A DNA stretch of 64,000 nucleotides from an uncultured Anaerolineales bacterium (lineage in GTDB: Bacteria; Chloroflexota; Anaerolineae; Epilineales; JAANWY01), in assembly GCA_964532665.1 (NCBI GenBank), contig CAZHMV010000002.1:14510-78509 (forward strand). Reading direction: 5' to 3'. Both the position numbers and the translations under genes were made by a program. Under the pieces are notes generated by a model. That model saw nothing but the letters and a program-made list of their open reading frames with translations. It had not been told where the DNA came from and searched no databases. Of this stretch, positions 7,426-10,400 are shown in pieces. Each line of letters opens with the position of its first letter. Position 1 is the first letter of the stretch.

Positions 7426-10400
7426 TGTCCTGTAGGCACTGCACGGTGAGTGCATTCTCTTTCAGCGCCTGGATGCCGTTGACGGCGGCGCGGGCAGCCG
7501 ACATGGTGGTGATCAGGGGCACGCCGGCCTGAATGGCGGCCAGGCGAATGGCCAGCCCGTCGCTGTGGGACGTGGTGCCCAGCGGCGTGTTGATGATCAG
7601 GTCGATCTGGCCGGCGCGGATGGCATCCACCAGATGGGGTGAGCCTTCGCTCACCTTGTTGATAGTTCCCACGGCCATGCCAACCCGCCGCATAAAGTCG
7701 GCCGTGCCTCGGGTCGCCAGCAGCCGGAAGCCCATGCGCCCCAGGTCACGGGCGATTTTTAGCACCGTGCTTTTGTCGAAGTCGTTCACGGTGATCAACA
7801 CAGTGCCGCTCAGCGGGAGCTCGTCGCCGGCTGCCAGCTCCGCCTTGGCGAAGGCTTGCCCGAACCGCCGTGCACGCCCCATCACCTCGCCGGTCGAGCG
7901 CATCTCGGGACCCAGGCGGGCATCGACGCCGGGGAACTTGCGGAAAGGCAGGACCGCTTCCTTCACGAAAAAGCCGTCCACCTTCGGCTCCTCGGTGAAT
8001 CCGATCTCCTCCAGGGTCCGACCGGCCATCACCTGGGCCGCAATCTTCGCCAGCGGCACACCCGTTGCCTTGCTCACGAAAGGCACCGTACGCGACGCGC
8101 GCGGGTTCACTTCCAACACATACACAACGTCATCTTTGATGGCGTACTGCACGTTCATCAGCCCGACGACACCCAGCGCCTTGCCCAGCATCTGCGTGTA
8201 CTCGCGGATGATGCTCAGGTGGTACAGGCTGACCTTGTACGGCGGCAACACGCAGGCCGAATCGCCGGAGTGCACGCCGGCCTCCTCGATGTGTTGCATC
8301 ACCCCGCCGATCACGACCTGCTCCCCGTCAGCGACGGCATCCACGTCTATTTCGAAAGCGTCTTCCACGAACCTGTCGATGAGGACCGGGTGTTCGGGCG
8401 ATGCTCGCACGGCCTCCGCCATGTACCGATCCAGGTCATCTTCGCCGTACACAACCGCCATGGCCCGACCGCCCAGCACGTACGAGGGTCGCACCAACAC
8501 CGGATAGCCGATATGAGCGGCCACCTGCCGGGCCTCCACCAGCGAGCGGGCCATGCCGTGGGCCGGCTGTGGGATGCCCAGCTCGTCCAGCAACGCGCCA
8601 AACCGCTCCCGGTCCTCGGCCAGGTCGATGGCATCGGGCGATGTGCCCAGGATGGGAACGCCGGCCGCCGCAAGGTCCTGCGCCAGCTTGAGCGGGGTTT
8701 GGCCGCCAAACTGGACGATCACGCCGAACTCGGAGGAACTCGGGGGAACTCGGGGGAACTCGGGGGAACTCGGGGGAACTTCACGGGACCCAGAGGAACT
8801 CCGAGGGTGCCCAGCTCCTCCGAGTTCCTCGCTCACCACATTCAACACATCTTCCAGCGTCAGCGGCTCAAAGTACAGCCGATCCGACGTGTCATAGTCG
8901 GTGCTGACGGTTTCCGGGTTGCAGTTGACCATGATGGTCTCGAAGCCCATCTCTTCCAAAGCAAAGGCGGCGTGACAGCAGCAGTAGTCGAACTCGATAC
9001 CCTGGCCGATCCGGTTGGGGCCGCCGCCCAGGATAATGATTTTGGGCCGGCTGGTTGGGTTCGCCTCGTCTTGTGTCTCGTAGGTCGAGTAGAGATACGG
9101 TGTGCGCGCCTCGAACTCGGCGGCGCAGGTGTCAACACGATGGTAGACGGGGCGGATGTCCAGGGCATGCCGGCGCGCCCTCACTTCGCCTTCGGCACGG
9201 CCCCAGAGCTGGGCCAGTTGCTCATCCGAGAAGCCAAAGCGCTTCGCCTCGCGCAGGAGGTCAGCCGGCACCCTCTCCAGCGCGTGACCACACAACTCGC
9301 GCTCCAGCTCGACGATCTCCTCAATCTGCCACAGAAACCAGCGGTCGATGCCGGTCAACTCATGAATCTCTTTCACGGACACGCCGGCCCGCAACGCATC
9401 CCCAATCGCAAAAATCCGCTTCGGACTCGGCACCTCTAGAGCACGGGTGCGGAAGTGAGGGGGTGAGGGGGTGAGGGGGAGACAAGGAGACAGGGAGATC
9501 TTCTCCCCTTCTCCTTTTTTCCCCTCTCCCTCTTCCCCTTTTCCCCTTTTCCCCTTTTCCCCTTTTCCCCTATCCCCTCCTATGCTCTCCAGTCCACTGA
9601 CCCCAATCTCCAACGACCGCAACCCCTTCTGCAGCGCCTCCTTAAACGTTCGCCCGATGGCCATGACCTCACCCACGGAGCGCATCTGGGTGTCCAGGGT
9701 GGCCGGCACACCTGGGAACTTGGCGAAGTCCCAGCGCGGAATCTTCGCGACGACGTAGTCGATGACCGGCTCGAAGGAGGCCGGCGTTTCCCGCGTGATG
9801 TCGTTGGGGATCTCGTCCAGCGTGTAGCCAACCGCCAGCTTGGCGGCGATCTTGGCGATGGGGAACCCCGTCGCTTTGGACGCCAGGGCCGACGACCGCG
9901 ACACGCGGGGGTTCATCTCGATGACCACCATGCGCCCGGTGGCGGGATCGACGGCAAACTGGATGTTGGAGCCACCGGTCTCGACGCCCACCCGCCGGAT
10001 CACCTGGCGCGCCCAGTCCCGCATGCGCTGGTATTCCTTGTCGGTCAGGGTGAGGGCCGGCGCGACGGTGATGCTGTCGCCGGTGTGCACCCCCATGGGA
10101 TCGAGGTTCTCGATGGAGCAGACCACAACGAAGTTGTCAGCCCGATCCCGCATCACTTCCAGTTCGAACTCTTTCCACCCAATCACCGATTCTTCGATGA
10201 GCACGCGGTTGACGGGACTCTCCTTCAGCCCGCGTGCCGTGATGTCGCGGAGTTCCCGTTCATCGTGGGCGACGCCGCCGCCGGAGCCACCCAGGGTGAA
10301 GGAGGGCCGGATGATCAGGGGGTAGCCCAACTGGCCGGCCAGCCGCAGTGCCTCCTCCACCGATGCCGCGATGTCACTCTGAGGCACGTCGAGCCCGATT

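Follow-up and report, generated by a model that had tools for sequence, protein, structure and literature searches.

How can tandem arrays of a 10-nt unit lie inside the genes of essential enzymes without closing their reading frames? The question is raised by a 64,000-nt stretch of contig CAZHMV010000002.1 (assembly GCA_964532665.1) from an uncultured Anaerolineales bacterium, which we refer to as the window and to which all coordinates refer unless another locus is named. Here, (GGAACTCGGG)n arrays built on the core GGAACTC sit in frame within carB (8724–8832) and argJ (4772–4819). These arrays probably belong to a dispersed class of tandem repeats with units of 7–10 nt, often paired into hairpins, that is copied around and filtered by selection.

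Arrays in carB and argJ

Both genes belong to a minus-strand run at 3174–10813 that consists of argH, argJ, argG and carB, and all four gave full-length NCBIfam equivalog matches. Repeats were called with Tandem Repeats Finder (TRF). The open reading frames (ORFs) and arrays of main concern are as follows.

7418–10813, minus strand: carB, carbamoyl-phosphate synthase large subunit, 1131 amino acids (aa), ORF intact, two repeat-derived inserts (NCBIfam NF003671, 1652.9 bits, full length).
9446–9586, minus strand: carB insert 1, 8-nt units, aa 410–456, about 35 residues added (TRF rows 9455–9571).
8724–8832, minus strand: carB insert 2, the GGAACTC array, aa 662–695 (direct reading, TRF, translation).
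8726–8780, plus strand: core of carB insert 2, 5.5 near-perfect 10-nt units GAACTCGGGG (TRF score 103, 97% matches).
8812–8830, minus strand: inverted partner units (GGAACTCGGAGGAGCTG on the mRNA strand), pairing with the last array units (sequence reading, RNA fold).
6006–6035, minus strand: degenerate GGAACTC-type units about 10 nt 3' of the argG stop codon (TRF score 37, one perfect core).
4586–5854, minus strand: argJ, bifunctional ornithine acetyltransferase / N-acetylglutamate synthase, 422 aa (NCBIfam NF003802, 518.9 bits).
4772–4819, minus strand: argJ insert, four GGGGAACTY units on the mRNA strand, encoding GGELGGTQGNSEELGG (TRF, translation).

An original prediction made from the DNA alone had placed GGAACTC arrays in carB, in argJ and at an intergenic site. 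Direct reading, TRF and shuffled sequences bore this out, the intergenic copy (6006–6035, within a 190-nt argG–argJ spacer) being weak and degenerate. The core occurs 20 times in the window against 8.2 expected, a count reached by none of 100 shuffles. A two-unit pattern allowing at most two mismatches occurs 12 times against 0.33 expected, and 11 of the 12 matches sit at the carB, argJ and argG–argJ spacer loci. The peptides quoted for CarB and ArgJ are present in the translations.

Over 20.8 and 13.4 kb, two independent metagenome assemblies of the Joint Genome Institute (JGI) match the window at 99.98% identity and have equal copy numbers; as both carry the same arrays, an assembly artefact is excluded. 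The 1131-aa CarB product is encoded identically in two other assemblies, and argJ is also called as 422 aa in assemblies L002 and L003. We saw no change in copy number between the three assemblies of this population, so the variation between strains that had been suggested as a check did not appear among them.

carB carries two repeat-derived inserts

On the mRNA strand, carB insert 2 reads as one or two GGAACTC units, a loop, and then about eight units of CCCGAGTTCC. Its core is followed by degenerate units as far as 8801, with ccgagttcc as an inverted copy at 8820–8828. RNA folding of the site gives −56.4 kcal/mol (z = −3.0), so the hairpin proposed earlier for carB is a moderate one; the argJ array forms none (z = +0.5). 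The net gain of CarB at this site is 30 aa (56 against a modal 26 aa between anchors), in line with the predicted value of about 30. The claim of a preserved frame also stood, as both ORFs are open and the net insertion is a multiple of three; the accompanying claim that the array intervals themselves are multiples of three did not (109 nt in carB).

Aligned to PDB 1BXR, insert 2 maps between E. coli CarB residues 631 and 636. By the established domain limits of the E. coli structure, it lies about 80 residues inside the carbamoyl-phosphate synthetic (second synthetase) component, and not near the boundary of the oligomerisation and second synthetase domains as had been proposed.

The second carB insert (9446–9586) was absent from the original prediction. 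Its mRNA strand reads (GGGGAAAA)n, followed by a small palindrome, GGAGAAGGGGAGAAGATCTCCCTGTCTCC, and then by (CCCCCTCA)x3. This insert takes the place of E. coli CarB residues 410–426, the start of the oligomerisation domain, and its RNA fold is unremarkable (z = −0.9). Together, the two inserts make up the 58-residue excess of this CarB (1131 aa) over the E. coli protein (1073 aa).

We built an AlphaFold2 model of CarB on 56 homologs, with a mean predicted local distance difference test score (pLDDT) of 86.2 and a predicted template modelling score (pTM) of 0.89. The pLDDT falls below 50, with no secondary structure, at residues 413–449 and 667–694, which are the two inserts, and otherwise only in a short segment at 563–569. 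Both insert peptides are therefore predicted to be disordered loops.

The same CarB sites hold different repeats in relatives

We aligned 120 CarB homologs, nearly all from Chloroflexota, and found both insert positions to be hypervariable. Site 2 has the minimal 26-aa loop in 56 of the 120 homologs, and 34 carry at least 11 extra aa there, the extras being mutually unrelated. The closest relative is an Anaerolineae metagenome-assembled genome (MAG; L001, protein P0002), with a CarB of 87% aa identity and flanks of 86–91% nt identity. At site 2 this relative has a GTAG-tagged palindrome, GTAGGGGCGAGGCAAG...CTTGCCTCGTCCCTAC (z = −4.1), unrelated to the window insert. Its site 1 holds (GGGAGAACTC)x5, which belongs to the GGAACTC family that occupies site 2 in the window (fold z = +0.6). 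Three more distant carB genes read as DNA all have in-frame inverted-array hairpins at site 2, with z scores from −4.7 to −6.9, built from the unit families GGAGATT/AATCTCC, CAATTGT/ACAATTG and GAGACGCAGAG/TCCCTGCGTC.

Such different repeat DNA at the same CarB sites in relatives shows that the carB inserts are repeat DNA acquired repeatedly and not old protein loops that were inherited. Shared amino-acid segments encoded by unrelated DNA, which had been named as the sign of ancient loops, were not found: L001 has unrelated repeats, and most orthologs are insert-free at site 2.

In two Chloroflexota CarB proteins, P0081 and P0091, site 2 is enlarged by 176 and 204 residues, with translated repeats (RGQGSGVRGQGSG... 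and ...PDPRPPTPDPRPLTP) at either end. These could be nested elements or a captured segment. In P0009, P0013 and P0014, CarB and ArgG form one ORF of 1522–1590 aa with a non-repetitive linker of 25–45 residues; either the two are truly fused or a stop codon in the carB–argG spacer has been lost. Bridging of these fusions by stop-free arrays was considered and rejected, as the linkers of all three show no repeat.

The argJ array is shared among relatives

The argJ array (4773–4816, 4.4 units, TRF score 67) runs on the strand opposite to the carB core reading. It lies in a turn between the beta-chain strands ...RIGLWF and LQLVRDG.... A gain of about 16 aa had been predicted for ArgJ; the gain is real, and we measured it as 19 aa against the phylum baseline or 8 aa against the nearest array-free relative (L112).

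An orthologous array occupies the same codon position in L111 (89% identity) and in L001 (85%), the latter with an extra 24 nt. It is degenerate in L113 and L115 (80–81%) and absent from L112 (84%), which has a different 11-residue loop there. The loops are all in frame, at 54 aa in the window and in L111, 62 in L001, 53 in L113, 60 in L115 and 46 in L112. Between the window and L111 the insert peptide is about 69% conserved, compared with 89% for the whole protein. The argJ insert is the older one, common to relatives rather than recent.

That insertions are tolerated in loops of essential enzymes, as had been proposed, is upheld by the unrelated repeats of relatives, by the array-free L112 and by the low pLDDT at both carB inserts.

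The GGAACTC family in other genomes

We scanned one genome per species for three consecutive GGAACTC units, a pattern for which about 0.3 chance matches are expected in 596 Gb (estimated from pattern length). At least 107 loci were found, mainly in MAGs of Anaerolineae/Chloroflexota and Thermoanaerobaculia. Among the matches listed, to which the counts in this section refer unless the metagenome scan is named, about 55 loci are from Thermoanaerobaculia/Acidobacteriota, where the unit GGAACTCCGA is mixed with 8- and 9-nt variants, and about 37 are from Anaerolineae and other Chloroflexota, where GGAACTC is followed by a variable 3-nt spacer. Several genomes give many loci, and many arrays have inverted partners. 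Acidobacteriota MAGs (L005, L016, L084, L097 and other Thermoanaerobaculia loci) bear very many arrays of a related unit of mixed length (GGAACCGA, GGAACCCGA, GGAACTCCGA), often with inverted partners. We considered 10-bp helical phasing as the purpose of the unit and found it unlikely, as the Thermoanaerobaculia arrays mix 8-, 9- and 10-nt units.

An array was called deep when it lay at least 40 codons inside an open frame of at least 300 aa. By this definition 53 of 120 arrays (44%) are deep, against 61% of random 40-nt windows from the same loci; for Chloroflexota the figure is about 13–15 of 41. A metagenome scan for the pure GGG-spacer triple unit gave 19 loci with 20 arrays, the contigs of the source population not among them, and one or two of the 20 are deep in ORFs. 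The GGAACTC family is mainly intergenic, with a sizeable genic minority.

Of 19 long frames tested, 14 have Pfam domains in the frame of the array. In other genomes, too, the unit is found in frame. Confirmed sites are the inter-domain linker of MetH, the PHP domain of DnaE, domains II and III of MutS, and a linker of HypF (in the MAG of L001), together with a PD-(D/E)XK nuclease-family protein and a PMT_2 glycosyltransferase. The anticodon-binding domain of the class I tRNA synthetase has an in-frame array at the same position in two Chloroflexota genomes (L074:1880–4558 and L088:800–3541). That insert is composite: a GGAACTC array is followed by heptamer arrays, the families of which differ between the two genomes (CAGCACT/CAGTCTC in one, CAGTGAA/CAGTCAG in the other). 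The MetH linker array is in frame at L038 (Thermoanaerobaculia).

Protein-level searches returned little. A peptide word search with an 80-aa synthetic query against an index of 5.8 billion proteins, in which low-complexity words are poorly indexed, gave one candidate. HMMER with the 34-aa CarB insert gave no match among 1.84 billion representatives, a query too short and biased to show absence.

Why the frame survives

The unit GGAACTCGGG is stop-free in all six frames, and the units of carB insert 1 are stop-free on the coding strand. By contrast, the commonest family of the window, CAGTGAT (five loci), has stops on both strands and is intergenic only, and all stop-containing heptamer families of the window are intergenic. 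An array cycles through the three frames because 10 is not a multiple of 3. The encoded peptides, of the GNSGELGGT(Q/R) type or its alternative, are rich in Gly, Ser, Pro and Glu. Arrays in ORFs are depleted, not enriched, relative to random positions.

The stop-free unit, the intergenic place of stop-containing families and the depletion in ORFs mean that selection on stop-free content, on a length of 3n and on permissive sites is sufficient. Survivorship under purifying selection suffices to account for the preserved frame, and an in-frame-biased mechanism is unnecessary. The original prediction had offered either strong selection on insert length and phase or a mechanism biased to in-frame outcomes; the former holds up as sufficient, and the latter is not needed for a stop-free unit of a mainly intergenic family.

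Turnover and origin of the arrays

The arrays change far more quickly than the DNA that flanks them, and the genic ones sit in unstructured loops or inter-domain linkers. Sites are reused while unit families swap, both at spacers and at the carB coding sites. The carB–argG spacer has the CAGTGAT family in the window (7323–7423) and in L001 (3951–4051), and upstream of carB the window has CAGTGAT (10814–10941) where L001 has GGAGATT (436–617). Of the sites with arrays in the window, three are array-poor in L112, in which the argH–pheA spacer is 23 nt long and array-free. The argG–argJ spacer is array-free in L001 (30 nt) and in L113 (3 nt, 178–181).

Close relatives differ in the length of the argG–argJ spacer, which is 3 nt at its shortest and about 660 nt at its longest (window 5854–6045; L112 5180–5839). 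The L112 spacer has an 86-aa ORF on the opposite strand, and in L111 argG is not within 444 nt upstream of argJ (L111:1–444).

If the carB and argJ arrays do belong to a dispersed tandem-repeat class, a DNA-level process would copy arrays into new places, and replication slippage would then lengthen or shorten them. Recent growth is suggested in carB, because five perfect units are found there. Purifying selection would remove genic copies that bring a stop codon, a frame shift or damage to structured protein. GGAACTCGGG would be among the few families able to persist in genes, as it is stop-free and encodes Gly/Ser/Pro/Glu-rich peptides. The inserted peptides would be disordered passengers, and the intact frame a survivorship effect.

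Several observations weigh against this account. Rather than a clean insertion, a replacement (21 nt versus 45 nt) separates the filled from the empty argJ allele. No target-site duplication or terminal inverted repeat was seen at the filled versus empty or differently filled sites compared. An associated transposase was not identified either, in a window whose ORFs were not scanned exhaustively. Native codons merge seamlessly into the first unit, GAG GAA in carB and GGC GGA GG in argJ, and because of this local slippage or microhomology-guided template switching is possible at single sites. Slippage itself is only inferred, since copy number does not vary in the three assemblies. The ORF-based census is crude, and 5 of the 19 long ORFs, without a Pfam domain, may be spurious. 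The account also gives no reason for the occurrence of the same unit in two phyla.

The continuity with native codons (GAG GAA CTC in carB, GGC GGA GGG GAA in argJ) speaks for a purely local origin, in which a native 10-nt stretch of a Gly/Glu-rich loop slipped, template switching made the inverted arm and nothing moved. The number of argJ units varies between species, the five perfect carB units look like recent slippage, and polymerase slippage has been proposed for the abundance of heptamer repeats (PMC4692102). One unit nevertheless recurs, with three loci in the 64-kb window and more than 120 in other genomes, many per genome; unrelated families occupy the same carB loops of relatives with 86–91% identical flanks; and the CAGTGAT and GGAGATT families are likewise common to distant Chloroflexota. 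We consider a local origin unlikely. Rather doubtful, too, is an element of the repetitive extragenic palindrome (REP)/REPIN or miniature inverted-repeat transposable element (MITE) type, moved in trans by a transposase (e.g., a RAYT-like Y1 enzyme acting on single-stranded hairpins), with the copies in genes as transposition events that survived. The hairpin architecture and multi-copy dispersal fit it, as does the GTAG-tagged REP-type palindrome at site 2 of the L001 carB; such REPs have been reported in Chloroflexi and inside genes (PMC3733652), and Y1-type transposition leaves no target duplication, which matches our observation. The sites compared show neither terminal inverted repeats nor a constant terminal tag: the window arrays have GGG/GGA spacers, and GTAG is only incidental in some Anaerolineae spacers. 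Array length is open-ended (3–16 units) where REPs are of fixed size, and again no transposase gene was identified in the window, which was not scanned exhaustively.

A 10-nt unit in five perfect copies inside an ORF could also suggest a contingency locus, in which the gain or loss of a unit would in principle throw the ORF out of frame and so switch carB or argJ off reversibly in part of the population. We regard this as very improbable: copy number is identical in three independent assemblies, this CarB is the only sequence in its 90% cluster, and both genes serve housekeeping biosynthesis; other genomes have the repeat family in DnaE, MutS and a tRNA synthetase, and its copies are mostly intergenic. 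Hardly credible is the idea that ancient lineage-specific loops, or an artefact of assembly, only resemble repeats. Many Chloroflexota do vary at both CarB positions, and moderately longer loops without obvious repetition occur in some relatives, but the inserts show 10-nt periodicity at 97% identity in the DNA and unrelated sequence fills the same sites in the closest relative; an artefact would have to be identical in three assemblies and to involve a unit also found outside genes.

More speculatively, a dedicated process in Chloroflexota, Thermoanaerobaculia and perhaps cyanobacteria might write and rewrite short-unit arrays at hairpin-prone sites, an idea to which we give a small chance. 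If true, it would explain the families that recur across phyla (GGAACTC, CAGTGAT, GGAGATT), the family swaps at orthologous sites and the nesting. The arrays in genes would then belong to an active class of genome-editing or self-templating element and would not be passive debris of slippage.

Relation to known repeat systems

Rickettsia palindromic elements (RPE) are in-frame palindromic repeats in housekeeping genes (Ogata et al. 2000, 2002, via PMC10969869 and PMC3733652). As outlined in those accounts, they resemble the present elements in being a dispersed family that lies both between genes and in frame within unrelated housekeeping genes, to which it adds peptide at fold-compatible sites, and that is read as selfish DNA under selection. 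In-frame insertion is seen here in carB (two sites) and argJ, and elsewhere in MetH, DnaE, MutS, a tRNA synthetase and HypF. RPEs are described there as about 100–150 bp long, conserved in sequence and peptide, and limited to Rickettsia; the arrays studied here are open-ended, with 3–16 units, and their peptide varies with phase and spacer. The hairpin is optional here, with none in argJ, and the hosts are Chloroflexota and Thermoanaerobaculia.

GTAG/CGTC REPs are short hairpins that lie mostly downstream of ORFs in operons, with a minority intragenic that adds 20–80 residues, and they occur in Chloroflexi (Di Nocera et al. 2013, PMC3733652). The intragenic copies are notably in replication/repair genes and tRNA synthetases (PMC3733652). 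L001 bears a palindrome with the GTAG tag of this class in the same CarB loop, at site 2. The GGAACTC arrays of the window differ, as they have no GTAG/CGTC tag and no fixed size of 20–40 bp and are internally tandem. They also lack the terminal inverted repeats and target-site duplication of MITEs at the filled versus empty or differently filled sites compared.

Cyanobacterial short tandemly repeated repetitive (STRR) sequences are comparable tandem arrays of short units scattered over the chromosome. Dispersed, G-quadruplex-forming heptamers have been described as GGGAATC in Xanthomonas and GGGGA(C/T)T in Nostoc PCC 7120 (PMC4692102). Most lie within 50 nt of stop codons; some form inverted pairs, close relatives differ in their length and sequence, and 7–32% are intragenic (PMC4692102). 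Our window is similar, with GGAACTC at three loci and about 12 heptamer-array loci in 64 kb, mainly intergenic. The intergenic hairpins fit the heptamer class well and share its 7-nt unit length, which the 10-nt unit of the GGAACTC arrays and the 8-nt unit of carB insert 1 do not. Unlike the Xanthomonas and Nostoc heptamers, the GGAACTC family is stop-free in six frames and lies inside catalytic enzymes, with its insertion points mapped. The contingency loci of host-adapted pathogens share ORF repeats with a unit that is not a multiple of three; they differ from the arrays here, which show no copy-number variation, lie in mid-gene loops of housekeeping genes rather than at 5' ends, and are mostly intergenic.

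The present elements combine both pictures, being short-unit tandem arrays, often palindromic, that persist in frame. Our literature searches on tandem and heptamer repeats turned up no account of such elements for either Chloroflexota or Acidobacteriota. Selfish repeats in coding genes are best known from Rickettsia; the present arrays add free-living Chloroflexota and Acidobacteriota to the hosts, with a different architecture, that of tandem-unit hairpins. The two CarB loops (E. coli 410–426 and 631–636) and one ArgJ turn are natural permissive sites for 8–200 extra residues, which may be of use in protein engineering. Low-complexity segments such as SSEFPRVPP in MAG proteins call for caution in annotation, as they are translated repeat DNA. 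Swapped families at conserved sites and units shared across distant phyla raise the question of how arrays spread. Three curiosities remain, namely the many unrelated families that reuse the same CarB loops across the phylum, the swaps of family at conserved sites and the one unit common to Chloroflexota and Thermoanaerobaculia.

Hairpin arrays elsewhere in the window

About 15 short-unit array loci lie in the 64 kb, mostly just 3' of stop codons in the arg and opp operons. Most are hairpins in operon spacers, in which a heptamer array faces its reverse complement, and many of the arg and opp spacers that we examined hold one. They occupy the pheA–argH, argG–carB, argD–argB and argB–argC spacers and the DNA 5' of carB and of carA, and others lie between opp genes; the families include CAGTGAT, TACGCAA and GTGAAAC. 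The remaining genes of the run and the hairpins are listed here, the latter without strand.

3174–4589, minus strand: argH (NCBIfam).
6045–7304, minus strand: argG (NCBIfam).
3106–3188: heptamer hairpin, GTGAAAC/ACGTTTC, argH–pheA spacer (TRF).
7323–7423: hairpin, (CAGTGAT/CAGTAAT)n facing (ATCACTG)n, carB–argG spacer (RNA fold −61 kcal/mol, z = −10.7).
10850–10927: heptamer hairpin, CAGTGAT family, upstream of carB (TRF).
14489–14565: heptamer hairpin, TACGCAA family, argB–argD spacer (TRF; gene calls from L002).
15346–15413: heptamer hairpin, TTGCGTC/GACGCAA, argC–argB spacer (TRF).
12708–12734, 22631–22678, 40516–40571, 41623–41706, 48137–48210 and 52897–53003: further heptamer hairpins.

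The spacer hairpins resemble analogues of REP or STRR sequences and could end or stabilise transcripts. An Rfam scan of the whole window gave no family at gathering score. The arrays at 40516–40571 were considered as the C-terminal tail of a 395-aa ORF and rejected, as that ORF is antisense to oppC/oppD and the arrays are intergenic.

At 28528–28684, two perfectly complementary GGAGATT arms, of a family also found in the carB of L116, stand 105 nt apart. The 105-nt interval holds its own palindrome (CTCTACCGTGCAC...GTGTACGGTAGAG), which gives the locus the look of two nested hairpin elements, one within the loop of the other.

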